The notes below the pieces were generated by a model. The model saw only the letters and a program-made list of their open reading frames with translations. It made no database searches and was not told the DNA's origin. A DNA stretch of 28,957 bases. Source: Candidatus Hodarchaeota archaeon (lineage in GTDB: Archaea > Asgardarchaeota > Heimdallarchaeia > Hodarchaeales > Hodarchaeaceae). The translations under genes were made by a program, and so were the position numbers. The DNA lies in contig JAEOTQ010000101.1 in assembly GCA_016839785.1 (NCBI GenBank), forward strand, positions 1 to 28,957. The letters are read 5' to 3'. Positions 1,497-24,010 of this stretch are shown here, in pieces; positions within the stretch are counted from its first letter, which is position 1; every line of letters begins with the position of its first letter.

Positions 1497-4400
1497 TTGA
1501 GCATAGGAGAATCCCAAGACTTCATAGTAATATCAGGACTAATGACAGCAATGGAAAAGACTGATTATGAGAAGATTTCTTTTGGACGAGTACCCTTCGT
1601 GTGGAAGAAAAAAATCAATAATCTAGTAAAAGAAAGTCCTGAGCGAGCTATGGCTATTTTTTTTTATAATTTTCGAGAAAATAATGAATCAAGACAGATG
1701 ATATATGGTTTTGAACTATTACTACCTCATAGTCTAGTATACATTTTGAATCGTCTTGATGAATTAAATACAGAGCAGTTTATACAGCTACTAAACGTTT
1801 TTAATAATTCTGCATTTCTTGATTCCTTGTTAGAGGTTGATTTAGCAGAACAAAAGAAATTCTTGAGTAAAATAGTTCAGAATTGGGAAATATGCAATGA
1901 ATCCTTGATTAAGAAAATATTAAGTCAGCTAAATCCGAAATTAAGTGAAGAAAGTTATCAAGCTCTCGTGAAGACAAAGCAACAATCATATGTTGAACTA
2001 CTAATCCTTTGGGTGGAATGTGATGTTCGAGTATTATATCTGATTCTACAAAGCTACATTCAGCAACCCATAGATCTAATTCTCCCACTATTCCGAAAAA
2101 TTCCTAAGGAAAAATTATTAAGTGCCTGTTCCTCTCAAAACCTTCCAAATAAACTTTCTCCCAAGAAAGTAGAAATATTCTTAAAAATATTTGATATTTC
2201 AGACCAGGAAATCAACTTTCTTCTCACCAAATTCAGTAGTGCTTCAAACAAGGCACAAGAACATTTAATTAATTGGATAAAGATAAAAAATTTGACTAAT
2301 AGTGAAATATTAAAAGCTATTCCTCTTAAACTCCAAACCCAAACGAGTACCTTAATCATCACTTATTTTTCCCAAAAAACTAACGGTGAAAAAGAAAAGG
2401 AAATGGCTTTCCTAGCAGAAATTATTGAATCTTCACTCTTTATTATCGCATCGTCTGTGTTGGGTTTTTTAAATCAACGTAAAGACACTCACGCTCTAGA
2501 TTACCTTTTTTCTCTTTTTAGTTATCTTGAGAAAAATCTAGATCAGTTTGCAAATTTCTTAATACCAGAATTTCAGAAATACTCAAACAACGAAGAGCAA
2601 CGATTGATCGAAGCTTATTTTCAAACCAGAAATGAAAACATCCAGGAGATTCTCCTCCCTTCAATCAATACTCTCAAACCTTCCCAATGGAAGAAATTGA
2701 TTGAACATATTATACTTCAAAACTATTTTACAGATAGAAGACGAGTTTCTCTGCTTCTAGGAAGTTTTGATGAAAAAACAATATCTGAAATTAGTAAGTA
2801 TATCATCAAGAAGAAGTATATTCTCCAGCTTAACTATTTATATGAAAATTTCCATTTCTTTCAACCTTTACTTACTACTACTGCAGCTATTGAATCTGAA
2901 GTTTATACTAGATTAGTTAACTATCTGGAATCCCACTTTAAAACCCATTTTGAAGAAATTGTTTCTTATAGCGACAAAATTTCATTCCCCAAGAGTTTAA
3001 TTTCTAGTGTATTCACAAAAAATGAAATTTGGAAACTCGTCTCCTGTGTTGGTTTGGAAAAAAAACTAATTGCTGCCTGGGAAACAGTGTTTTTACTCCA
3101 CTCTAAGGAAGCTCTACCCCATTTCTTAAAAAAATTTAAGGAAAAATCCAAGAAAAGCAAAGAACCTCTTCTGATCATCTCGAAGAAACTCATTGACATT
3201 GAAATTGTTACTTTCTGGAAGTATATCGCTTCTATATCGAGTAAAAGTCTACCTACATACGCGACATTGCTTAATTATGCATTAGATAAAAGTGTACCAA
3301 ATTTAGCGGAGATAATCACCTTTCTCCCTTCATCACATGTCTCACATGTTGTGAAAAATATTATCCCTGATCTTTCAACAAAGAGTACTCAAATGCTCTA
3401 TGCAATTCTTTCAGTTCAAGAATCTTCAATTTTAAATCATACCAACGTTAATACGCTTATTCTAGCTATCTTAAAACTAAATCCACAAGAACTAGTCTAC
3501 ATTGTTCTAATTCGGCTTACCAAGCTTGAAACAAACCCTAATCTACGCTCATTTAGTCAAAACCTTTTTAACCAAATTATTAGCAAATATCCAAGAGCTA
3601 CCGTAGAAAATATTGATGACCATAATCTTTCCTCTTTTACACTGGCTGTTGGTGACTATATTAAAGCGTTACCAGAGAAAAAATTTAGAATTTTACTCAA
3701 ATACATTATTCCTAACCTTAAAACTAGATGTTTGAGACCCACTCTTGTGGATCAATGTCTTTCACGTTTTAGGCGTCCTTCAGCCGATTATAAATTATTG
3801 CAAGCGATCACCACTACTGATCAGTCAAAAAAATTTTCTGACGAGGGGCAATCTCTTTTATCAGCTTTAATTAAGCAACTTATTGGAAGATCATTAGAAA
3901 CTGATCTTAGAATATTAACCATCGTGCAAGGGGCACATTTATCTCTTAAAGAATCATTACTTATTGCATATTTTTCAAAATTACCTCAAGATACACTTGA
4001 TTTCGTGCTTTCAGATCCGTCTATCAATATATCAGAGGATAGTGCAATCAACGCATTGACAACTAGATTTGCTAAGAGGCCTCCATATGAACCTGAACAA
4101 TACTATATCTCCCTTTATCAGCAATCAAGTAGAGCTGAGATAAAACGCGCGGTTCTACCATTGATAGGGGAATATTGTTCTTGGAAGAATTTGCCATTCT
4201 TAATGGAATTACCTGAACGGAAAGAATTCGAGCAGGAATATTCGATATCAATCAATAAATTCATCGAGCGATTCGAGATTGATTCTGCGGAAACATTATA
4301 TCGAATTTGGAGTTCTGGCCTCAAAGATATATATACTAGCATAACCAAAACAACAGTTGCCCCACAACAACGGTCTAATTATCAATCCAATTGTCCTAAA

Positions 4401-4655
4401 TGCAATAATCCTATTTTAGAGGGACAAAAAAACTGTGGATTCTGCACTCAGCGCTTAACATGTGCTATTTGTTTTAAAAGCGTTGTAACAGCTAATGATG
4501 TTGATTTAGTTGAATGTACACAATGTTCTAGTTACTTCCATAGAAGGCACCTTCTTCAAAGCGTAAAGATACGGAATGAATGCCCAATCTGCGATGTCCG
4601 TCTTTCCGAAAGAGAAGTTTCTTCACTACCTCAAGTTAAGTTCTTTTTCAACTAG
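1497..4655 (+). CDS. Large predicted alpha-helical (solenoid-like) protein with C-terminal Zn ribbon plus RING variant; candidate E3 ligase or scaffold
   Basis: About 950 aa of Leu/Ile/Ser/Lys-rich amphipathic sequence, then CPKC-x10-CGFC-x5-CAIC...CTQC-x4-HRRH-x10-CPIC. True start is probably ATG 1542 or 1551. Confidence 0.75.
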   Translation: MSIGESQDFIVISGLMTAMEKTDYEKISFGRVPFVWKKKINNLVKESPERAMAIFFYNFRENNESRQMIYGFELLLPHSLVYILNRLDELNTEQFIQLLNVFNNSAFLDSLLEVDLAEQKKFLSKIVQNWEICNESLIKKILSQLNPKLSEESYQALVKTKQQSYVELLILWVECDVRVLYLILQSYIQQPIDLILPLFRKIPKEKLLSACSSQNLPNKLSPKKVEIFLKIFDISDQEINFLLTKFSSASNKAQEHLINWIKIKNLTNSEILKAIPLKLQTQTSTLIITYFSQKTNGEKEKEMAFLAEIIESSLFIIASSVLGFLNQRKDTHALDYLFSLFSYLEKNLDQFANFLIPEFQKYSNNEEQRLIEAYFQTRNENIQEILLPSINTLKPSQWKKLIEHIILQNYFTDRRRVSLLLGSFDEKTISEISKYIIKKKYILQLNYLYENFHFFQPLLTTTAAIESEVYTRLVNYLESHFKTHFEEIVSYSDKISFPKSLISSVFTKNEIWKLVSCVGLEKKLIAAWETVFLLHSKEALPHFLKKFKEKSKKSKEPLLIISKKLIDIEIVTFWKYIASISSKSLPTYATLLNYALDKSVPNLAEIITFLPSSHVSHVVKNIIPDLSTKSTQMLYAILSVQESSILNHTNVNTLILAILKLNPQELVYIVLIRLTKLETNPNLRSFSQNLFNQIISKYPRATVENIDDHNLSSFTLAVGDYIKALPEKKFRILLKYIIPNLKTRCLRPTLVDQCLSRFRRPSADYKLLQAITTTDQSKKFSDEGQSLLSALIKQLIGRSLETDLRILTIVQGAHLSLKESLLIAYFSKLPQDTLDFVLSDPSINISEDSAINALTTRFAKRPPYEPEQYYISLYQQSSRAEIKRAVLPLIGEYCSWKNLPFLMELPERKEFEQEYSISINKFIERFEIDSAETLYRIWSSGLKDIYTSITKTTVAPQQRSNYQSNCPKCNNPILEGQKNCGFCTQRLTCAICFKSVVTANDVDLVECTQCSSYFHRRHLLQSVKIRNECPICDVRLSEREVSSLPQVKFFFN

Positions 4656-12750: not shown

Positions 12751-13569
12751 TTAGGGTATTCCTCTAGGATCCCAGGTTATCGATTCACCTTTTCTCAATG
12801 AATCAAGTCTGTCCATATCATCCTTAGAAAGGTCAAAATTAAAAACATCTGCATTTTGTTTTAAATGCTTCTTATCTGCACTCTTGGGAATTGTCGGTAC
12901 ATTATGTTGTAAACACCAACGTATGAGAATCTGCGGAGGAGATTTCCCATGTTTTTTTCCGATTTCCTTCAAAGTCTTATCGCCAAGTTTTTGACCCTTT
13001 GTTAAGGGACTATACGCTTGTAGCTGTATTTGATTATCTTCGCAGTACTTGAGAAGATTACGATTATACAACCAAGGATGAAATTCAACTTGATTAACTA
13101 GTGGAATAATCGAACAGGTTACTAGAAGCTCTTCTAAATGATTGATCATAAAATTACTAACGCCAATCCCTTTTACTCTTTCAGTTTCTAGAAGTGATTC
13201 AAGAGCAGTCCAAGATTTTAACCTCAAGTTTGTAACGGGCCAGTGAATCAGATATAAATCGATATAGTCTAATCCAAATCTATCCATACTTTTATCAAAT
13301 GCTGTTAGCGCTTTTTTATAACCTTGATCACTATTCCAAAGCTTGGATGTGATGAAAAACTCTTTTCGATTAAAAGTACTGGTGGAAATAGCCTTTCCAA
13401 CTTCTTTTTCATTTCCATAAAATGTTGCAGTATCAAATAATCGGTAACCAAGATCTATTGCCCACTGAAAAACTCGATCAGCTTCCCTTGGGCGTATCTG
13501 ATAAACACCCAGACCTAGATATGGCATTTCGATACCATTATTTAGCCGAATTTTACTGGAGAATTTCAT
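12751..13569 (-). CDS. Aldo/keto reductase (YvgN / 2,5-DKG reductase-like)
   Basis: GLGVYQ, DTATFYGNE, ITSKLWN, YIDLYLIHWP, GIGVSNF, NQVEFHP, AYSPL, IPKS. Confidence 0.95.
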   Translation of the reverse strand: MKFSSKIRLNNGIEMPYLGLGVYQIRPREADRVFQWAIDLGYRLFDTATFYGNEKEVGKAISTSTFNRKEFFITSKLWNSDQGYKKALTAFDKSMDRFGLDYIDLYLIHWPVTNLRLKSWTALESLLETERVKGIGVSNFMINHLEELLVTCSIIPLVNQVEFHPWLYNRNLLKYCEDNQIQLQAYSPLTKGQKLGDKTLKEIGKKHGKSPPQILIRWCLQHNVPTIPKSADKKHLKQNADVFNFDLSKDDMDRLDSLRKGESITWDPRGIP

Positions 13570-13679: not shown

Positions 13680-14621
13680 TTAGGGGGGAGAGACAACAAC
13701 TCCCAAAAAGAGCCAGAAAAAGGCAAAAGCCATCAACATTGACGCCAGTTTGAATATCCTAAATGTACCAACCTGTGTTGGCTTTCTGAGATTTTTCAAT
13801 GACAGATATATCATATAGATGCAGAACGCAAATAACGGCAATAGTGGTAAAACCCGAATACTTAGGGTAATCCCCGTCAACGCAATCAGCACTGTACTCA
13901 GAATAGCTGACAATGTGATTACTTGTATAGTCTGAGTTTCACTTCGTATTACTGGCCACATAGGAATATGGGCATTTCTGTATCCTTCCAAATTTTTTGG
14001 AAGTAATGCGAGAGTTAAAATATGTAAAGGGATCCAACAAAGCACAAATAAGCCCATCAGAATTCCAGGAAGTGTTATTGATGCCGATACTGCCGTTGCT
14101 CCAGCTAGTGCTGGTAATCCACCTGCGATTCCTCCAAAAATGATGGAAAATCGAGTTCTTCTTTTCAATAAGAGAGAATAAACTACCACGTCGAAGAATG
14201 CACCGAGAAAAACGACCACCGCTGTTAAATAATCCACAAATACTGCAATGGCTAAAAGTCCCGCAATTGTGAACAGAAAACCATGTCGAAGAACGGTTCT
14301 AGATGAGATTTTTCCCATTGGTAGTGGCCGATCTCTTGTTCTTTCCATTAAAGCATCGATATCACGATCTATATACATATTTAGAAGCGTACTTCCTGAG
14401 ATAGCAAAAAATATCCCCACGTTCAACCATAGGAATACACTTAAGTTAAATCCTGAATACCACGCTGTGATTAGATACGCAAATAATGCTGTATAAACTA
14501 ACAAGAATGTTTGCTTACTTTTAATCAGCTCTCCATAAAGAAAAAATGGAGTGGTCGTGGTAGAAGCTAATGTTGGTTGTTCATACGCCTGTAGTTGATC
14601 GGGGGATTCAGTATCGGACAT
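13680..14621 (-). CDS. ctaB: Protoheme IX farnesyltransferase (heme O synthase, UbiA superfamily)
   Basis: NMYIDRDIDALMERTRDRPLPMG, YSLLLKRRT, GGIAGGLPAL, WIPLH, YRNAHIPMWPV; about 9 TM segments. Confidence 0.93.
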   Translation of the reverse strand: MSDTESPDQLQAYEQPTLASTTTTPFFLYGELIKSKQTFLLVYTALFAYLITAWYSGFNLSVFLWLNVGIFFAISGSTLLNMYIDRDIDALMERTRDRPLPMGKISSRTVLRHGFLFTIAGLLAIAVFVDYLTAVVVFLGAFFDVVVYSLLLKRRTRFSIIFGGIAGGLPALAGATAVSASITLPGILMGLFVLCWIPLHILTLALLPKNLEGYRNAHIPMWPVIRSETQTIQVITLSAILSTVLIALTGITLSIRVLPLLPLFAFCIYMIYLSLKNLRKPTQVGTFRIFKLASMLMAFAFFWLFLGVVVSPP

Positions 14622-14662
14622 TTGATTCTATCTTACCTTCTATTGAGATTATCTTTTGTTAC

Positions 14663-16264
14663 TTACTCGGGCCAATCTTTTACATCATGTCTACCCTTTA
14701 TTATGTGAATCAATTGATTAAAGCAGAAAATTGCTAACACAATAACAAAGAGCATGATTCCCAAATCCATGACAAGAGGTAACCAATTACCAAACCCGAA
14801 GAGTTTTTGGGCCTTCCAGAAGTCAGCGACATCTATATATTTCGTTAGATTCGTAGCCCACTCTTGATCAAAGTGAGGATAATAGAGATATATCATACCT
14901 AGACCAAAAGCTACAAGACTGCCTACAAATGATAGCCAGCCCATCACTTTTCGAGCTATGCCTTGGATATCCAAAATATCAATCAATAGAAGCACTAGCA
15001 TTATTGCTGACAAGGTAGCCAAAATATGCCAATGACCTCTTGCTACAGTTGTTTCAACTGCTAGGGGACCATCTCTAAAAGCAACAATATCCAAAATCCT
15101 TGTGAATGGAGACACTCCTTCAGGATCAGTGGGGCCCCGTAGACTGAGGGCTAGAAAAATTCCACCAAAAGTCATAACAAAGTTAACCCAAATGAAATAC
15201 CAGTAGAGAGAAAACTTCACAGGATCATTGAAGACAGCTTTAGATCGTTTCACCCATGAGGCGGATTCGTATTGATCTCCAAGAATTTCCTTACTCATTT
15301 TATTCCAACCAGTGAGTGCTAAAATGAGACCAACCGTTACCAAGATAGCAGACCCTGCATAGATTAGGTAATGCATATCAAAGGGAAAATCGATTACTTC
15401 ATTAAAAGTAACAGCCCAAGAACCGATTGACATAATCAACATTCCTGGCATAGCAAGAACCATTGAAATAGCATACCATTTTCCCTTTTGATCCCGTACG
15501 GTGTATCTATAGACGACTAACAGTATAATAGTATCAATTAGTGCTAACATTATATGCAAGTGTGCTTTAACTGCATCCACTAATACATGGTCATAAACAA
15601 GATAGTCAACTAGTTCATCTCTGAGAAAATACTCTGCTAAAAGAGGTATCATACCATTCCCGAAGAAGGATCCAATGGCTCCTCCGAGAATTACGCTGAT
15701 TAAGATACAAATAGTCAAGAGTGTCACAGCGGATTGACCTAAGAGAATATTTCGACTGTTCTCTGATTCACGTTTGGGAAAAGATCCAGTCGGAAAAACT
15801 CCAAGTAGAAGCATAATTCCTGCATAGAAACAAAGCGAGAGTCCAACTAAGTAAAGGCCATGTAAAATCCAAGCACCTTGGAAAACATAAGCAAATAATA
15901 TACCACTACTCGATGCTAAGGTACTTCCGAGGAACAGAGGCCATTTTACTCGCGATTTGAATTTTTCACGGACATCCATGAACATTAGTACGAAATAAGT
16001 ACATACTGCAACAACTGGTACCGCTATACTATGATAAAGTATAATAATACGGCCAGCCCTATCAACAAAATCATCAGATAATTCAATTGGTAGCAATGGT
16101 TGACCAAGTATGAGTTCGATAGGTTCGGAGAATGTAGATAAAAATAATACAATTACAAAGATATAAACTACTGTAAAAGTCGCCAGTCCTTTGTAAGTTG
16201 CACCGTAATTTATCTTCCTTCTTAACCACTCAATTTTTGAGTCAGATGAATTAATTTCAGACAT
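14663..16264 (-). CDS. 12-TM histidine-rich membrane protein, putative heme-binding protein (HCO subunit I / heme A synthase-like topology, non-canonical)
   Basis: 12 hydrophobic segments. H78 (TM2), H135 (TM4), H235-x-H237 (TM6), H298 (TM8), H411-x-H413 (TM10). AGGTGA RBS at 16271-16276. Lies 41 bp upstream of ctaB. Confidence 0.6.
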   Translation of the reverse strand: MSEINSSDSKIEWLRRKINYGATYKGLATFTVVYIFVIVLFLSTFSEPIELILGQPLLPIELSDDFVDRAGRIIILYHSIAVPVVAVCTYFVLMFMDVREKFKSRVKWPLFLGSTLASSSGILFAYVFQGAWILHGLYLVGLSLCFYAGIMLLLGVFPTGSFPKRESENSRNILLGQSAVTLLTICILISVILGGAIGSFFGNGMIPLLAEYFLRDELVDYLVYDHVLVDAVKAHLHIMLALIDTIILLVVYRYTVRDQKGKWYAISMVLAMPGMLIMSIGSWAVTFNEVIDFPFDMHYLIYAGSAILVTVGLILALTGWNKMSKEILGDQYESASWVKRSKAVFNDPVKFSLYWYFIWVNFVMTFGGIFLALSLRGPTDPEGVSPFTRILDIVAFRDGPLAVETTVARGHWHILATLSAIMLVLLLIDILDIQGIARKVMGWLSFVGSLVAFGLGMIYLYYPHFDQEWATNLTKYIDVADFWKAQKLFGFGNWLPLVMDLGIMLFVIVLAIFCFNQLIHIIKGRHDVKDWPE

Positions 16265-16274
16265 TTTTTCTCAC

Positions 16275-16955
16275 CTAAAATAAACTACTGATTATGGGAA
16301 TATCCACTTTCCACTTTTTCGGGAGTCCGATCCCTAGGGCAAAGAATACTCCAACGACAAGTAACAAATATGGTAGAATAGCAAAAATTTCTGTTAATGG
16401 TAAAATTGCTTCCATACTTTCTACTGTGGCAAACGCGAGTAATACACCACCAAATGAAATCAATAATCCACCAATTCCAAAGAAAATACTCGTCCATGCT
16501 GTTTTTTTCGTAAATGCCGTGTATAAGGGTAAAAATGATATAATCAATCCAGAAGGAATATGAATACCCATTATAACCATGGAAGCGATGTCTAGCGTAA
16601 GTATATCTAGTTTAATAACAGTTAATATCCCTATTACGACTATAGCATATAGCGCATAGAAGAATCCATATTGAGTGTCGTCATAGACAGCATATAAAAG
16701 TCCAATTGCAAGCCCTGCAGGAATCAATGCTGCCACTGGAGGGACAAGTGGATTTTCCAAAGCTTCAGTCCATCCGAGGAAAATAATCAACACACCAGAG
16801 ACAAATAAAACCAAAAAACTTATTGCCCATGATAGGTGATACATTTTCTTGGAAGATAGGTATTCTTTTAGTAGTAACAGAGCCAAGATAATTGCTACAA
16901 CTCCTACTACCAGAAGTACAACCGCTCCCATTAAATCAGTGTCAAGTAATGTCAT
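16275..16955 (-). CDS. 7-TM membrane protein of unknown function, first gene of the heme operon
   Basis: Seven hydrophobic segments and one intramembrane His (MGIHIPSG). Its stop overlaps the RBS of the next gene (10-bp gap). Confidence 0.75.
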   Translation of the reverse strand: MTLLDTDLMGAVVLLVVGVVAIILALLLLKEYLSSKKMYHLSWAISFLVLFVSGVLIIFLGWTEALENPLVPPVAALIPAGLAIGLLYAVYDDTQYGFFYALYAIVVIGILTVIKLDILTLDIASMVIMGIHIPSGLIISFLPLYTAFTKKTAWTSIFFGIGGLLISFGGVLLAFATVESMEAILPLTEIFAILPYLLLVVGVFFALGIGLPKKWKVDIPIISSLF

Positions 16956-17128
16956 ATCGTTTCAACTCAATGTCAAAATTTTTACTTTCTGTGTTGGATA
17001 AGAACGAAATATTATCAAGATTCATACATGCTAGCTTCATTAGATTGAAACTGTGTTTATAATCTTTACGTGAATTGACGAAACAGAAGGCGCAAGAATA
17101 AAGTTTTTGCGAATAAAAAAATTATCTG

Positions 17129-17205
17129 CTTACAAATTAGTAAGTACCCCTAACAAATGGTACGTTACCTTACTTCTTAGTAAGCCGCTTACTAAAGTAA
17201 ATAAG
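17129..17205. promoter_or_regulatory. Operator array of CTTAC-N6-GTAAG palindromes, probable HxlR-family binding sites
   Basis: Perfect copies at 17129-17144 and 17169-17184. Degenerate copies near 17149-17164 and 17188-17205. A TTTATAT box follows at 17206-17212. Confidence 0.7.
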
Positions 17206-17262
17206 TTTATATTGGACTTCTGTTATTGATTCAATAACTCAAAATATGTAAGGTAATCCGTT

Positions 17263-17700
17263 ATGAGTGCAGAAGGAATTGAAGAATGTGCAGCAAGTCT
17301 TGCTATGCAAATATTGGGTCGCAAATGGACACTCTATATCATTTGTGAACTATTGATGTGTCAAGAGCTCTTTTTCAGCCAATTACAGGAGCAAATCCTT
17401 GGTAACTATGGTGAGAAAATTTCTGCACGTGTTCTTTCTGAGGGATTAAGTCGGTTAGAAAAAAATGGGGTTGTTAACCGGATTGTTCACAGTGAAAGTA
17501 TGCCCATTCGTGTTGGTTACTCATTAACCGACAAAGGAGAGGATTTCGCTGTTATTTTTAGTGCTTTGAAAGGTTGGGGTGTCAAATGGGGCGGAGTCGG
17601 GGTAAAAAGATGCAGATCATATGCATGCATACATAATGCTGTCCCAATTATTGACATCGATGCGGCAAAAGAGCTTTTTCAGATCGGCGAATGTGATTAG
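17263..17700 (+). CDS. HxlR (MarR/DUF24) family winged-helix transcriptional regulator
   Basis: C-x6-ILGRKWTLYII...FSQL...ISARVLSEGLSRLEKNGVVNR...PIRVGYSLTDKG...LKGWG; extra C-terminal CRSYAC. Confidence 0.93.
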   Translation: MSAEGIEECAASLAMQILGRKWTLYIICELLMCQELFFSQLQEQILGNYGEKISARVLSEGLSRLEKNGVVNRIVHSESMPIRVGYSLTDKGEDFAVIFSALKGWGVKWGGVGVKRCRSYACIHNAVPIIDIDAAKELFQIGECD

Positions 17701-17772: not shown

Positions 17773-18537
17773 TTATATTTTTGTTGGTGCTGGTTTGGGG
17801 GAATAAACAAGGTGTAGAATTCTACCAACAAAATGTAGTAAAACTCCAATTACTATAGATAGTAAACCAACAACGTATTGGAAGGTTTCTAACCAATTTC
17901 CAGTAAATGTATATACACTTGCATCGATCGGATGGGTCATAGGCATAAAGATTGGTTGGATTGCTAACAGGATCCCGAAACTCAAAAATACATACGAGAA
18001 GTTTGATACTTGGGTACCAACACTTCCACCAACAGCACTGCTTCTTCTTTCTAGTTCCTTTGAGATATTACTTTTTATTCTTGGCAGTAAAAGAGCAATG
18101 AGAATAATTATATTCCCAATTGTACGGGCCCATGAGGGTGTAAAGAACATACCATTGACACCAAAAGTGTCCCACCATTCGTAAAAAAGTATTGCAGAGG
18201 GAATGAAACCGCTAACAATACCCAAAATACAATTAGCTATTGAAACATTGTAAAACCACGATTTCCCTGATTTTAAAGCCCAATATAGAATAATCCATAA
18301 GATTCCCACCAACCAAGTTATAACATAACTTATGATAAAAAGTGGTTGCTGGTCACCAACGACTGCAAAAGTAAAACCCCCTTTGGTATTTGGCATTGCC
18401 CACCAATTGCCAAGAAAGTTGAATGTTGTACAAGTGCTTCCAATTCCAGAAATAATTCCGACTGCTGCACCCAAAGCTAGTAAAATATAGAAACTTTTTA
18501 TTGATTGTAGTTTTTCTCGTATTCTCAAAATCTTCAC
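17773..18537 (-). CDS. Hypothetical integral membrane protein (about 6 TM)
   Basis: 254-aa ORF with multiple hydrophobic segments. No family recognised and start uncertain. Confidence 0.7.
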   Translation of the reverse strand: MKILRIREKLQSIKSFYILLALGAAVGIISGIGSTCTTFNFLGNWWAMPNTKGGFTFAVVGDQQPLFIISYVITWLVGILWIILYWALKSGKSWFYNVSIANCILGIVSGFIPSAILFYEWWDTFGVNGMFFTPSWARTIGNIIILIALLLPRIKSNISKELERRSSAVGGSVGTQVSNFSYVFLSFGILLAIQPIFMPMTHPIDASVYTFTGNWLETFQYVVGLLSIVIGVLLHFVGRILHLVYSPKPAPTKI

Positions 18538-19122: not shown

Positions 19123-19590
19123 TTATGCATTCTTAATCTTTTCTTGAGCCAGTAATGCTGCATCGACAATCGGTTGGTACCCCGTACATCGACATAAATG
19201 CTTTTCAAGACTCTTATGAATCTCCTCAATGTTAGCATTTGGACTAGTACTAAATAACGCAAATAACTCCATAATATAACCAGGGGTGCAAAATCCGCAT
19301 TGAACGGCTGTAGCTTCAATAAAAGCCTCTTGAATAGCGTGAAGGTTAAAGTTGCTCGATATACCTTCAATTGTAATAACATCAGCATTTTCTAGTTTTC
19401 TTGCTTTTGTAATACAACTTTTAACTGCTTTCCCATTTACAACGACCGTGCATGCCCCACAATGCCCCTGATTGCAACCATTTTTGGTTCCTGTCAAAGA
19501 AACTTTTTCACGAAGTATGTGAAGTAAAGTATCAGTTGGATCTACAGAGATAGAATAGGTTTTGCCGTTAATTGAAAGTTTCAATTCCAT
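19123..19590 (-). CDS. 2x[2Fe-2S] small subunit of a xanthine dehydrogenase/aldehyde oxidoreductase family enzyme (CoxS-like)
   Basis: GCNQGHCGACTV...KSC, QCGFCTPG, LCRCTGY. Confidence 0.96.
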   Translation of the reverse strand: MELKLSINGKTYSISVDPTDTLLHILREKVSLTGTKNGCNQGHCGACTVVVNGKAVKSCITKARKLENADVITIEGISSNFNLHAIQEAFIEATAVQCGFCTPGYIMELFALFSTSPNANIEEIHKSLEKHLCRCTGYQPIVDAALLAQEKIKNA

Positions 19591-19591
19591 T

Positions 19592-21925
19592 TCATACCCC
19601 TCCTTTTTTTAGAGAAGTTAGCATTCGTTCTTTGGTTACTGGAATGCTGGTAAAGGAAACACCAGTTGCTCTTTGGATTGCATTTAAAATGACAGATGGA
19701 GGTCCCAATGCAGGATGTTCGGCTATAGGACGCGCTCCGTATGGTCCGTTAGGTTGAGGGGTTTCTATAAAGATACAACTGTATTTTTTTGGCATATCAG
19801 ACAATTTGGGTATTGCATATCTTCGCAAATTGACGGTTCTCATATTCCCAGAGCCATCATACTCAATTTTCTCTTTTAAGGCTTGTCCAATTCCCTGCAT
19901 CACTCCACCAGTGATTTGTCCCCGTGCTAAAGCTGGATTGATAATTTTTCCAGCATCAAGAGCCGTCACAAAATGCAAAATACTTATTTCTCCTGTATTC
20001 TTGCTGATTTTCAAATCAACTCCTTGACTACCGAATGTCCATTCGTAGGGTTGATACTGGCCAGTTTCTAGATCAGGAAACGTGACGTTACGAACGACAG
20101 ATGAGCCTGTACTCAATATAGGATTCCCTACTGTATGCCCATCAGAATATTGGTAACCAAGTACCAAATGTTTGAGATCCAAGGATTTATCCTGATAACT
20201 GACTTTGGTACCATCATATACTGTATTAGTGACTGTACAACCCCATACTTCCGCTGCGTTTTCTTTGAACTTCCTGATAGCTTTATTACATGCATCGATA
20301 ATGGCATTTCCGACCCGCATTGTCGTCATACTTGCGACTGTCTGCCATTCATAAGGTGTTAACTGTGTATTAATTTCATAATTTATTCTGACCATGTCTA
20401 CAGGAATATGTAAGGCTTCAGCTGCAATTTGAGCGAGTACTGTGAGACTACCCTGGCCAAGTTCTACACCCCCGATTGATATATTCACGGTTAAATCTTC
20501 GTTAAATTTGAGAAAAACATTTGAAGAGGCATTAGCAGTTTGAACTGGTGATTTAATGAGTCCAACTACCGCACGTCCATAGAAAAATTTCTCATCTTCA
20601 GGAGGGAGAGGAATTTCATCAAGTTTCGTTATTGTTTGAGTAAAACATTTTCTAATATCTCCATTATGATCAGAGATTACTTGTCCAAGAGAATTTGTAT
20701 CGCCAGGGCTTAAGAAGTTCTTCATTCTGAGTTCATTAGGGTCTATTTCCAACGTTGAAGCTAATTTATCCAGGAGTCGCTCGATCATGAATTGTCCTTC
20801 TGGGTGTCCATATCCACGGAACGCTCCAACTGGTGTGGAATTGGTATAAACCCCATACGATTTAAGATTGCAATTTGGAAAAAAATAGGGGCCCACACAG
20901 TTATGTCCGGCAGCTAATACTACATTACATCCTGTGTCTCCGTATGCTCCATCAGAATAATACTGGGTGGCTTCTATACCAACAAGTGTTCCATCCTTCT
21001 TTGCACCTAATTTCATCTGACCTTTCATCCCTCGTCCCAACACTGAGCCAATGAAGACTTCCTTTCGAGTCAGTACAAATTTCACATGGTATCCTGGTAC
21101 CAATTTTGCAGCTAATGCCACCAACGGTTCGATGGTGTAATCACTTTTTCCCCCAAAACCTCCCCCTAAGTAAGGTATGTGAATATGAATCTTGGTCATC
21201 AGTTTTATTTTAAAGTAATCAGCGAGTACTTCACGCAGTACAAAAGGCGCTTGGGAACTACTCCATAGATGAAGCTCGCCTGTATGATCCCATCGTGCAA
21301 TAGCACCATGAGGCTCAATAGCTGCATGATTCATCAACGGATATTCGAAATTATCTTCAACTGTAACCTCTGCATCCTGAAATGGAAATTCATAGTTACC
21401 TTTCTTCAGGCGATATTTATAAAAAACATTAGTTTGAGGTTCTGGCACAAATGTAGGAACATGACGGTAGTTTCCATTTTGTTCATGAATAATTGGGGCT
21501 TCTTTACTTGCGGACTCTATAGGGTCCAACGTGAAGGGTAATTCTTCAAAAACAGGAAAAATATTTTTAATAGCCGCCAACGCTTGTTTTTCAGTTTCCG
21601 CGATGACAACAGCTACTACCTCTCCTGCATGTCTTACCTTATCAATAGCTAATGGTGGTTGATCAAAGATGCAAGTCCCAAATAAATGGTCTTTATCTAG
21701 ATTTAAAGATTTTCCGGTGAATACTTTATGTATCCCTGGCATATCCAGAGCTTTACTAATGTCTATTGTCTTTATAGTAGCATGAGGAACACCTGCCCTC
21801 AGTACTTTCATAATTAAAGTTCTTGGAAAACGTAAATCGTCAATATAAAGTGCTGTACCTGTAACTTTTTCATGGGCATCTGCTCGTGGAATGCTAGCTC
21901 CTACAACTTTATTAAACAACTTCAA
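19592..21925 (-). CDS. Molybdopterin-binding large subunit, xanthine dehydrogenase/aldehyde oxidoreductase family
   Basis: KVTGTALYIDD, HAAIEPH, GGGFGGK, GAFRGYGHPE, ELGQG, GQITGGVMQGIGQAL, GPYGARPIAE. Confidence 0.95.
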   Translation of the reverse strand: MKLFNKVVGASIPRADAHEKVTGTALYIDDLRFPRTLIMKVLRAGVPHATIKTIDISKALDMPGIHKVFTGKSLNLDKDHLFGTCIFDQPPLAIDKVRHAGEVVAVVIAETEKQALAAIKNIFPVFEELPFTLDPIESASKEAPIIHEQNGNYRHVPTFVPEPQTNVFYKYRLKKGNYEFPFQDAEVTVEDNFEYPLMNHAAIEPHGAIARWDHTGELHLWSSSQAPFVLREVLADYFKIKLMTKIHIHIPYLGGGFGGKSDYTIEPLVALAAKLVPGYHVKFVLTRKEVFIGSVLGRGMKGQMKLGAKKDGTLVGIEATQYYSDGAYGDTGCNVVLAAGHNCVGPYFFPNCNLKSYGVYTNSTPVGAFRGYGHPEGQFMIERLLDKLASTLEIDPNELRMKNFLSPGDTNSLGQVISDHNGDIRKCFTQTITKLDEIPLPPEDEKFFYGRAVVGLIKSPVQTANASSNVFLKFNEDLTVNISIGGVELGQGSLTVLAQIAAEALHIPVDMVRINYEINTQLTPYEWQTVASMTTMRVGNAIIDACNKAIRKFKENAAEVWGCTVTNTVYDGTKVSYQDKSLDLKHLVLGYQYSDGHTVGNPILSTGSSVVRNVTFPDLETGQYQPYEWTFGSQGVDLKISKNTGEISILHFVTALDAGKIINPALARGQITGGVMQGIGQALKEKIEYDGSGNMRTVNLRRYAIPKLSDMPKKYSCIFIETPQPNGPYGARPIAEHPALGPPSVILNAIQRATGVSFTSIPVTKERMLTSLKKGGV

Positions 21926-22087: not shown

Positions 22088-24010
22088 ATGGCTTTCAATA
22101 ATAGCATGAAAATTGGAATAATTGATCTATCTTCAGGTTCAGTCATTACCGAGAAATTGGATTTTAACGATGAACAATTTAAGAAGTATCTGGGTGGAGA
22201 AGGAGTAATTGTGGAATATTTATTGAAGAATATGCCTGCAAATATCGATCCCTTATCCCCTGACAATCATTTATGTTTTATTACTGGTATATTGAGTGCC
22301 ACAAAGGTCCCATTCTCTGGCAGATATACAGTTGTTTGTAAATCCCCTCTAACGGGTGGTTGGGGTGAAGCAAATTCAGGTGGACGTTTTGGGCCAGAGT
22401 TACGAAAAACGGGGTTTGACTCGCTTGTCATCAAAGGTAAGGCGAATAATCTATCTATTATTGTGGTAACTGATAATGGAATTGAAATCAAAAGTGCAGA
22501 TCAGTTAAGAGGACTGGATTGTGTTCAAACAGAGGATAATTTGAAAGAAATCTACGGAAAAAAAGCTCAAATTGCTAGTATTGGGCTAGCAGGTGAAAAT
22601 TTAGTTTTATTTTCAGGGATTGTAACTGATAAAGGTAGAATCGCCGCACGTAGTGGCGTGGGTGCAGTTATGGGATCAAAAAACCTAAAAGCGCTTGTAG
22701 TAAGAGGAACTAATTCAGTTCCTATTGCAGATCCCTCAGGTCTTAATGAATTAAGAAAACTGGTTAATAAACGGATCAATAAAGGGATCAATCCTCTAAT
22801 GAAACCTGGTTTAAAGGCCTCCACAACGTTTGCACCTTGGATTCGGCGTTTTCGAATAAAAAATTTCGGGTCTTTGGGTCCAAGTAATATGATTATTGAA
22901 TCCTATCGTCGATGGGGAACCTGTGCAGGAACTGCAATGCTAGTAGAAACAGGTGATGCGCCAGTAAAAAACTGGAAAGGGTCATACACAGATTTTCCCT
23001 TGAAGAATAGCTCAAAAATTACTGGTGACAATGTCACCAAATATCAAATAAAGAATTATGGTTGTCATAGCTGTCCTATGGCTTGTGGAGGTATAATGAA
23101 GTACTCAGATGAGCATTTCACCCTTGATGAAACTCACAAACCTGAATATGAAACCTTAATCATGCTAGGGGCAAATTTATTGAACGACGACATTGGAGCA
23201 ATATATCAATTAAACGATTATTGCAATCGTCAAGGATTGGATACCATTGCCGCGGGTGCTATCTTGGCTTTTGTTATAGAATCCTTAGAAAATGGAAAGA
23301 TTCCTCAAAATATGCTCAATGGTTTTAATCCTACTTGGGGAGACCCTACGGATTATTTACCTATGTTACAGATGATTACAGAGAGAAAAGCAATCGGAGA
23401 TGTATTGGCAGATGGTTTCACAAAAGTATCAGAAAAATATGATTTAGATACTGGAATGCATATCCAAAACCAAGCACTGCCCGCTCATGACCCTAGATTC
23501 TCTAATAGTATGATTATTCCATATAGATTGGATCCTGCACCAGGTAGACACACTCCATTCTCAGAACTAATGATTGACTTAGCAAAATTTAGTCAGATGT
23601 TCCCAGAACTCCCTAAAGCCAATCGTTTCTCAGATTATTACTGTTATCATAAAACAGTTTCCTCGATAGGTCTATGTCAGTTCAGCTTATTAACAGGAAA
23701 TTTCCCTGTTATTGAATTTGTAAATCTAGTGACTGGATTCGATCTCTCAGTAGAAGATATTGTCACTATTGGTGAAAGGATACTTACTCTTAAGCATATA
23801 TTTAATTTACGGGAAGGAAAAAATCCTCTTGAATATAAACTACCTGATCGAACATTAGAAAATGCCGAACGAGGTCCAAATAAGGCAATTTCAGCTAGCA
23901 AAGAAAATAAATTAATCTTGGACTTTCTTGATTCGCTTAGCTGGGATTCGACGACAACTAAGCCAAACGAAAATCGATTGAGATCTCTAGGATTGAGGGA
24001 CTTCGTTTAA
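22088..24010 (+). CDS. aor: Aldehyde:ferredoxin oxidoreductase (tungstopterin AOR family)
   Basis: KSPLTGGWGEANSGG, AARSGVGAVMGSKNLKA, CHSCPMAC 4Fe-4S motif with distal GLCQF, PEYET, GLDTI, HDPR. Confidence 0.95.
   Translation: MAFNNSMKIGIIDLSSGSVITEKLDFNDEQFKKYLGGEGVIVEYLLKNMPANIDPLSPDNHLCFITGILSATKVPFSGRYTVVCKSPLTGGWGEANSGGRFGPELRKTGFDSLVIKGKANNLSIIVVTDNGIEIKSADQLRGLDCVQTEDNLKEIYGKKAQIASIGLAGENLVLFSGIVTDKGRIAARSGVGAVMGSKNLKALVVRGTNSVPIADPSGLNELRKLVNKRINKGINPLMKPGLKASTTFAPWIRRFRIKNFGSLGPSNMIIESYRRWGTCAGTAMLVETGDAPVKNWKGSYTDFPLKNSSKITGDNVTKYQIKNYGCHSCPMACGGIMKYSDEHFTLDETHKPEYETLIMLGANLLNDDIGAIYQLNDYCNRQGLDTIAAGAILAFVIESLENGKIPQNMLNGFNPTWGDPTDYLPMLQMITERKAIGDVLADGFTKVSEKYDLDTGMHIQNQALPAHDPRFSNSMIIPYRLDPAPGRHTPFSELMIDLAKFSQMFPELPKANRFSDYYCYHKTVSSIGLCQFSLLTGNFPVIEFVNLVTGFDLSVEDIVTIGERILTLKHIFNLREGKNPLEYKLPDRTLENAERGPNKAISASKENKLILDFLDSLSWDSTTTKPNENRLRSLGLRDFV

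Follow-up and report, generated by a model that had tools for sequence, protein, structure and literature searches.

In the cyoABCDE operon of Escherichia coli, which encodes the bo3 oxidase, an oxidase-fold subunit is encoded together with a haem O synthase. Haem O synthase (CtaB or COX10) is widely taken as a marker of aerobic respiration, and work debating how the archaeal relatives of eukaryotes use oxygen draws, at least in its accessible parts, on haem O biosynthesis and on COX10 trees. Divergent members of the haem-copper oxidoreductase (HCO) superfamily have also been described: according to the available parts of Murali et al. 2024 (PMC11214002), the families eNOR, bNOR, sNOR, gNOR and nNOR are B-family relatives whose active-site histidines are otherwise conserved, with an Asp replacing one His in gNOR. 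Here we analyzed a 28,957-nt stretch of an archaeal genome (Candidatus Hodarchaeota archaeon, GenBank assembly GCA_016839785.1, contig JAEOTQ010000101.1, positions 1 to 28,957 of the forward strand; hereafter “the window”), in which a haem O synthase gene, ctaB (13680-14621, minus strand; 313 aa), lies next to the gene for p533, a 533-aa protein with 12 predicted transmembrane (TM) helices (14663-16264, minus strand). Our best reading, built on structure prediction, takes p533 for the catalytic-type subunit of a branch of the HCO superfamily that is undescribed and very divergent; p533 is probably a marker of an undescribed haem-O-dependent membrane enzyme of anaerobes.

We evaluated p533 through its predicted structure as well as its sequence. 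Searches of Pfam (with E up to 10) and NCBIfam, and of Protein Data Bank (PDB) sequences with phmmer, gave no match for p533 or its neighbor p226 (16275-16955, minus strand; 226 aa, 7 TM). With a profile of 31 homologs, the sole match of p533 to the PDB was Mrp antiporter subunit B (E 7e-4), which covers one TM stretch and looks like hydrophobic bias. AlphaFold2, run on an alignment of 31 family members from Asgard archaea and bacteria, yielded a p533 model with twelve long helices, i.e., 12 TM (pLDDT 87.7, pTM 0.89). When this model was compared to 48,161 chains with VIA-align, the top ten rows were all subunit I of HCOs or nitric oxide reductases (NOR), at Z 19.5-14.5, and the first unrelated fold appeared in row 11 at Z 10.9. 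Matches included CcoN of the cbb3 oxidase (3mk7_A; Z 19.5, 414 residues aligned), NorB of cNOR (4xyd_A; Z 19.3, 402 residues), bo3 (1fft_A; Z 17.7, 413 residues), ba3 (3eh3_A; Z 16.3, 435 residues), and qNOR (3ayg_A; Z 15.9, 427 residues). Foldseek also returned HCO/NOR chains in 49 of 49 rows among the matches listed, and the ESM Atlas gave unnamed clusters plus one entry auto-named [quoted passage not shown] (score 0.90), which we treat as a lead only. At the level of prediction, the HCO subunit I fold of p533 is established. An earlier, sequence-only reading of this DNA had been unable to match the module to a named system; the p533 model, however, has the fold of HCO subunit I, and the description of a locus with “no oxidase genes” was misleading because p533 itself is the oxidase-like component.

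The conserved residues of p533 can be placed on this predicted fold. The 31-member alignment contains 36 invariant columns, seven of which are histidines: H78 in TM2 of the model, H235 and H237 in TM6, H411 and H413 in TM10, and H135 and H298 at the outer-face starts of TM4 and TM8, the latter at the TM7-TM8 junction. We then aligned the 31 sequences jointly with 11 Asgard COX1 proteins using three MAFFT modes. In all three, H78 paired with the TM2 haem ligand of COX1 (H73), and H411 and H413 paired with the TM10 H-x-H motif (H377 and H379), which constitutes positional evidence. H237 fell in the column of the cross-linked Tyr, again in three of three modes. The His-His pair of CuB had no invariant counterpart across the 31 sequences, in which the single invariant H298 is found instead, and TM7 held no invariant His. 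Overall, in the model, both haem sites look canonical and the distal site non-canonical, such that H235, H237, and H298 may form a modified metal site, or a distal residue may ligate the haem directly. Further invariant residues lie at outer-face helix ends and in loops (R72, E211, R397, and E404, alongside H135 and H298); E211 is located in a low-confidence outer loop of the model, to be compared with the NOR FeB site of three His and one Glu. The HCO fold has an internal threefold pseudo-symmetry, and the one, non-significant, match obtained with hhalign, between the p533 TM6 stretch “AHLHIML” and the COX1 TM10 stretch “AHFH”, fits that symmetry and proves nothing.

The product of ctaB belongs to the UbiA family (PF01040, E 2.5e-45) and scores above the cut-off of the haem O synthase equivalog TIGR01473, the only match over that cut-off in its genome, so that by these family criteria it classifies as a haem O synthase. 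Haem O synthase models take the top three places among its NCBIfam matches, with the next family at 59 bits, and it contains an N-x3-D-x3-D ... R-T-x2-R-P stretch which we take to be typical of CtaB/COX10. A maximum-likelihood phylogeny was computed for 56 ctaB proteins, and two further UbiA enzymes encoded in this genome served as its root. In it, 31 p533-linked sequences and five Asgard sequences of other or unknown context were separated from COX1-linked and other ctaB by a branch with support 100/99.7, and a quick tree of 92 rows concurred (SH-aLRT 99). This ctaB hence belongs to a clade that travels with p533. Genomes with both systems have two ctaB paralogs, the one beside COX1 scoring 250-330 bits against TIGR01473 and the one beside p533 ~195-225 bits. 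As a side observation, a tandem duplicate of ctaB is found downstream of p533 in two Hodarchaeales-like genomes (L004:8646-10696 and G190:C13:26838-28756; L and G denote our locus and genome labels).

The association between p533 and ctaB extends far beyond this genome. Among the candidate proteins examined, 658 scored as homologs of p533 with E ≤0.001, corresponding to 108 representative clusters at 50% identity and at least 555 genomic loci, with every member unnamed or “hypothetical”. We scanned the best 80 of these ≥555 loci, 16 archaeal and 64 bacterial, with the window’s proteins, and considered ctaB linked if located ≤3 kb downstream of p533 on the same strand; loci with ≥2.5 kb of downstream DNA were considered informative. 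By this measure, ctaB was linked in 57 of 63 informative loci (69 of all 80 surveyed), including 15 of the 16 archaeal loci, the sequence of the exception stopping 138 nt past p533. Carriers include Asgard archaea, Chloroflexota, Symbiobacteriaceae and other Bacillota, Aminicenantes, Bacteroidales, Calditrichota, and Spirochaetota, i.e., the adjacency is kept over at least seven phylum-level labels, and the family is widespread in anaerobic Chloroflexota of sediments and bioreactors. A conserved module around the haem O synthase is thus found across genomes, which supports the module proposed by the sequence-only reading; homologs unlinked to ctaB, the outcome by which that reading would have been refuted, are not what was observed.

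Next, we evaluated the co-occurrence of p533 with ordinary oxidases in a sample of 201 Asgard genomes, in which 30 carried p533, 41 ctaB, and 13 COX1. Nearly all p533-bearing genomes (29 of 30) also encoded ctaB, only a 69-residue fragment with a stop being present in the exception, and in 24 of the 30 the two genes lay ≤500 nt apart on one contig. No COX1 was detected in 22 of these 30 genomes, nine of which are at least 95% complete, and several 97-100%. Conversely, 28 of the 41 ctaB-bearing genomes had no COX1; 21 of them had p533 and seven neither. Among bacteria, the linked ctaB was the only ctaB, with no COX1 in the genome, in two of five carriers examined, one of these two being a complete Anaerolineaceae chromosome (G201). 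The genome from which the window derives (84.5% complete) encodes cytochrome bd subunit I. Separately, the seven Asgard genomes in which the thresholds used gave ctaB without COX1 or p533 were G025, G042, G059, G066, G072, G094, and G095 (loci L117-L120), three of which (G066, G072, and G094) have a p226-like gene; no obvious oxidase-like gene was seen among the neighbors of Asgard ctaB genes lacking both p533 and COX1.

Other membrane proteins accompany this pair. The p226 model (pLDDT 92, seven helices) retrieved in fold searches a flat list of generic 7-TM bundles resembling G-protein-coupled receptors (Z 13.8 or less), with no match to COX3 in Pfam scans, and the protein has one invariant His, H132. 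It was found in 34 of the 80 p533 loci and in 23 of the 201 Asgard genomes, of which 19 also have p533 and 22 have ctaB. At many bacterial loci (e.g., L024, L048, L064, L070, and L073), p226-like genes abut or overlap the end of ctaB, hinting at a role tied to the synthase, and p226 is a candidate accessory subunit or haem-O handling factor. Beyond 13680-17700, the module extends to p254 (17773-18537, minus strand), a polytopic membrane protein found in 11 of the 16 archaeal loci; in three of these, L006, L007, and L011, its gene lies immediately upstream of p533. Cys36 and His202 of p254 are invariant; its matches were limited to a sub-threshold DUF973 match in Pfam and unnamed Chloroflexota clusters in the ESM Atlas, and it is weakly related to b225, a bacterial family located after ctaB (cross matches E 4e-4 and 7e-4).

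In bacteria, 48 of 64 loci have a gene between p533 and ctaB for a lipoprotein with an FGE-sulfatase domain (PF03781; FGE, formylglycine-generating enzyme; e.g., L033:8500-9396 and L046:8473-9366). None of the 16 archaeal loci has one; an FGE-like gene was also not found in the genome of the window. In Symbiobacteriaceae, p533 is extended at its C-terminus by a 13th hydrophobic segment and then this domain (fusions P0087 and P0080), which places the domain on the outer face and argues for a physical association. An FGE active site has two Cys, and the lipoprotein is probably not a true formylglycine-generating enzyme, because of its conserved residues (H107, E108, H144, and a Cys) the C-terminal Cys is single. 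Two additional observations concern these bacterial loci: an unnamed ~260-aa polytopic family with a conserved “AESAEPGCE” stretch is encoded upstream of p533 in 16 of them, often adjacent to a Crp/Fnr regulator (e.g., L046:5944-6741), and cultured carriers appear to exist, one fused p533 homolog bearing a Symbiobacterium name.

Within the window, ctaB, p533, and p226 are separated by gaps of 41 nt (ctaB/p533) and 10 nt (p533/p226), and diverge from a gene for an HxlR-family regulator (17263-17700, plus strand; 145 aa; PF01638, 63.3 bits for a cut-off of 20.8, E 2e-17) across a 307-nt palindrome-bearing spacer (16956-17262). These three tightly spaced minus-strand genes and the spacer palindromes were found as the sequence-only reading had described them. 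The entire window has two copies of the palindrome CTTAC-N6-GTAAG (17129-17144 and 17169-17184), and both fall inside the spacer; the chance expectation is 0.03, and two copies were reached in 0 of 100 shuffles. A third palindrome, TTAGTAAGC/GCTTACTAA at 17177-17195, overlaps the second copy, and related GTAAG/CTTAC motifs are kept in four orthologous spacers. Judging from this pattern, the spacer palindromes are likely HxlR operators. The regulator weakly resembles the redox regulators RrpB and RrpA, under their cut-offs. Of the 16 archaeal loci, 11 have an HxlR gene next to the module; none of the 64 bacterial loci does, and 30 of these have a Crp/Fnr-type regulator. The label “stress-inducible” that the sequence-only reading gave to the module is not supported as such, its basis being the families of these regulators, HxlR here and Crp/Fnr in bacteria.

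From the computed features, i.e., the predicted fold, conserved residues, gene linkage, separate ctaB clade, and occurrence without COX1, we infer how the module may bind haem, use haem O, assemble, be regulated, and act on a substrate. A low-spin haem would be bound between H78 and H413, and a second haem on H411, as in all HCOs; for this second haem, the product of the cognate CtaB, haem O, is the most likely candidate. For an oxidase provided with its own haem O synthase, cyoB and cyoE in the E. coli bo3 operon offer a precedent. The distal pocket would be non-canonical, lined by H235-x-H237 of TM6 and the lone H298. Proteins p226 and p254 would serve as accessory subunits or haem-O delivery factors of p533, joined in bacteria by the periplasmic FGE-fold lipoprotein, sometimes fused to p533. 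The operon would be controlled by HxlR via the CTTAC-N6-GTAAG palindromes, and in bacteria by Crp/Fnr-type regulators instead. We hypothesized the resulting small membrane redox enzyme, itself under redox-type regulators, to perform reductive scavenging of O2, NO, or peroxide rather than energy-conserving respiration, since its hosts are mainly anaerobes and both the Tyr cofactor and subunit II are absent. That the module is a haem-O-dependent oxidase-fold haemoprotein module we consider likely; for the entire reading, including the oxidant-scavenging role, we see the chances as evenly balanced.

Several observations weigh against this reading and have to be set beside it. No sequence-level link to HCOs was obtained: PF00115 (COX1) did not match p533 at E up to 10, and hhalign of the p533 profile against the 11 Asgard COX1 reached 3.7% probability in local mode and aligned just 15 terminal residues in global mode. 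The homology between p533 and HCOs therefore rests on the predicted fold, and since the best Foldseek E was 5.7e-3, with no row at 0.001 or better, the fold call rests on VIA-align. Only one of three MAFFT modes paired H235 with the TM6 His of CuB, and only one paired H298 with a member of the CuB His-His pair. As a classical O2 reductase, p533 would lack an active-site Tyr (none is conserved in TM6 or TM7 across the 31 sequences), recognizable proton-channel residues, and a subunit II, which was found neither among the window open reading frames (ORFs) nor, as PF00116 (COX2), in the 84.5%-complete genome. At six loci, no ctaB is adjacent to p533 despite ample flanking DNA (L022, L027, L044, L045, L061, and L063), and the TIGR01473 score of the window’s ctaB (213.6 bits) exceeds the cut-off (210.3) by ~3 bits. 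Regarding canonical oxidases and haem A synthase elsewhere, which the sequence-only reading had left to be checked, COX1, COX2, and CtaA were indeed not found in the genome itself, but COX1 is present in five of nine sampled genus relatives, so the missing COX1 may be an assembly gap. In two of these relatives, G119 and G136, COX1 is present and the p533-linked ctaB is the only ctaB, so in this genus it may also serve an ordinary oxidase. Finally, the haem source is at issue, as ALAD (HemB, PF00490), a core enzyme of tetrapyrrole synthesis, was not found in the genome and occurs in one of 11 genus genomes, at a contig edge. The lineage nevertheless has genes for cytochrome bd, CtaB, and p533, some members also for COX1, and may depend on scavenged haem. 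The module had been described as self-contained, which is doubtful given both this missing enzyme and its extension to p254.

The genus relatives bear most directly on whether the linkage means anything for p533. If ctaB served a canonical oxidase missed in the 84.5%-complete assembly, p533 would be an unrelated membrane protein, as the COX1 genes of five of nine relatives and the single, p533-linked ctaB of G119 and G136 might suggest. This is highly improbable: COX1 is not found in 22 of 30 p533-bearing Asgard genomes, several of them 97-100% complete, nor in the complete Anaerolineaceae chromosome G201, the adjacency holds across at least seven phylum-level labels, and the linked ctaB genes form a separate clade. 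That clade, apart from COX1-linked ctaB, could itself be taken to indicate that the UbiA-family enzyme prenylates a substrate other than haem and that p533 binds no haem O, in line with the narrow score of the window’s ctaB (213.6 for a cut-off of 210.3) and with the many p533-linked orthologs just under the cut-off, at 195-210 bits. We give this scarcely any credence, however, because its three best NCBIfam matches are all haem O synthase models, far from the next family at 59 bits, the N-x3-D-x3-D ... R-T-x2-R-P stretch is present, and the partner p533 has a haem-protein fold. Alternatively, p533 and/or p226 may act on haem O, either modifying it, as an analogue of haem A synthase or by other side-chain chemistry, or receiving it from CtaB, storing it, or exporting it. 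CtaA was not found in this genome, the genus seems to be without ALAD, so that haem handling may matter, p226-like genes abut or overlap the end of ctaB in many bacterial loci, and p226 co-occurs slightly more often with ctaB (22 of 23 genomes) than with p533 (19 of 23). But such a role suits p226 better than p533, whose model shows an oxidase fold and both haem sites in canonical form rather than the CtaA fold or family, and we regard it as quite unlikely. The sequence-only reading had the two membrane proteins use or modify the prenylated haem; nothing suggests that p533 would modify rather than bind it.

A different question is whether p533, granted haem binding, is catalytic. It might be an electron-transfer cytochrome in which all haems are six-coordinate, handing quinol electrons to an outer-face partner, in bacteria the FGE-fold lipoprotein. 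Ligands would be H78/H413, H411 with distal H237, and possibly a third haem on H235/H135. Consistent with this, the TM6 H-x-H resembles the TM10 motif, with which the sole, non-significant, hhalign match pairs it, every one of the three MAFFT modes puts H237 at the active-site Tyr position beside the haem pocket, helix ends and loops of the outer face hold many invariant charged or His residues, the Tyr cofactor is absent, and 48 of 64 bacterial loci encode the FGE-like partner, in some cases as a fusion. Yet archaeal loci have no such partner (0 of 16, and none in this genome), a need for haem O, typical of a high-spin catalytic site, would be hard to explain, and to our knowledge no HCO-fold protein is a pure electron carrier; we therefore hold this alternative to be unlikely. 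About as speculative is a bolder form of the catalytic reading, in which p533 would be a deep, possibly copper-independent branch of the oxidase superfamily, with a 2+1 His metal site or an extra haem, using haem O in strict anaerobes of both domains. It would have kept a pseudo-threefold His pattern (TM2, TM6, and TM10, plus the starts of TM4 and TM8).

The surroundings of the module were surveyed as well. Pfam scans of window ORFs of ≥100 aa, excluding nested out-of-frame ones, detected none of the COX1, COX2, COX3, Sco, cytochrome c, or CtaA families, as the sequence-only reading had stated for all of these but COX1; four scanned ORFs had no family at all, so this is an absence of recognizable families only. 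Nearest homologs of the window proteins bear Heimdallarchaeota, Hodarchaeales, or Hodarchaeota names. An aldo/keto reductase gene (12751-13569) comes after ctaB here and in three close relatives (L001, L002, and L004), and could be a member of the same HxlR regulon. The module is adjoined by a xanthine-dehydrogenase-type molybdopterin pair, i.e., a 2Fe-2S subunit (19123-19590) and a molybdenum cofactor (MoCo) subunit (19592-21925), with an aldehyde:ferredoxin oxidoreductase (22088-24010) also nearby; Xdh is discussed as an aerotolerance trait of Hodarchaeales in the available part of a preprint. A 1052-aa ORF at 1497-4655 has no Pfam family at E 1e-4 or better. In addition, RNA libraries from two sediment studies contain contigs that match parts of p533, p226, ctaB, and hxlR. 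Those within 15404-17015 match p533 and p226 pieces at ≥99%, one of them reaching 60 nt upstream of the p226 start codon, and four pieces in X2 carry 0-1 differences. We did not count these for expression or co-transcription because DNA is possible in such libraries and the contigs show no transcript ends.

Taken together, these results suggest that p533 represents a new family built on one of the best-studied enzyme scaffolds; this family is beyond sequence detection, differs in its distal site, and comes with new partner proteins. The literature searched contained no description of it, although Supplementary Table 5 of 10.1101/2025.02.26.640444 may list such genes; papers on Asgard oxygen use count haem O synthesis or COX10, and their accessible parts mention no such partner (10.1101/2024.07.04.601786, 10.1101/2025.02.26.640444, and 10.1101/2025.11.07.685452). 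Given that 28 of 41 ctaB-bearing Asgard genomes have no COX1, 21 of them with p533, and that the linked genes form a separate clade, p533-linked ctaB should not be scored as a respiration marker. Should p533 prove to be a deep, possibly copper-independent branch, it would show what the oxidase scaffold did apart from aerobic respiration, and most “COX10” genes counted in Asgard genomes would be uninformative on aerobic respiration.

Among described systems, p533 shares its predicted 12-TM fold with the minimal HCO subunits I, CcoN of cbb3 (3mk7_A) and NorB of cNOR (4xyd_A), as well as the TM2 His and TM10 H-x-H at haem-ligand positions. It differs from them in having no detectable sequence similarity, a CuB/FeB His-His pair cut down to H298, no active-site Tyr, and additional histidines in TM6 (H237) and at the start of TM4 (H135); neither a cytochrome c nor a cupredoxin subunit gene is found in the window, and no COX2 family in the genome. 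As in the E. coli bo3 operon (1fft_A and 6wti_A), an oxidase-fold subunit comes with its own haem O synthase, but the p533 module does so without subunits II, III, and IV, with the unrelated p226 and p254 in their place and a non-canonical distal site. Haem A synthase (CtaA/Cox15), the usual genomic companion of CtaB, is a His-rich membrane haem protein, as p533 would be, yet its fold differs, PF02628 matches neither p533 nor p226, and the family was not found in the 84.5%-complete genome. With the HCO families set out in the available parts of Murali et al. 2024 (PMC11214002), p533 has in common its divergence, the missing active-site Tyr, altered metal ligands, and a proposed substrate other than O2; in contrast to them, it lies beyond profile detection and is linked to ctaB, p226, p254, and an FGE-like protein.

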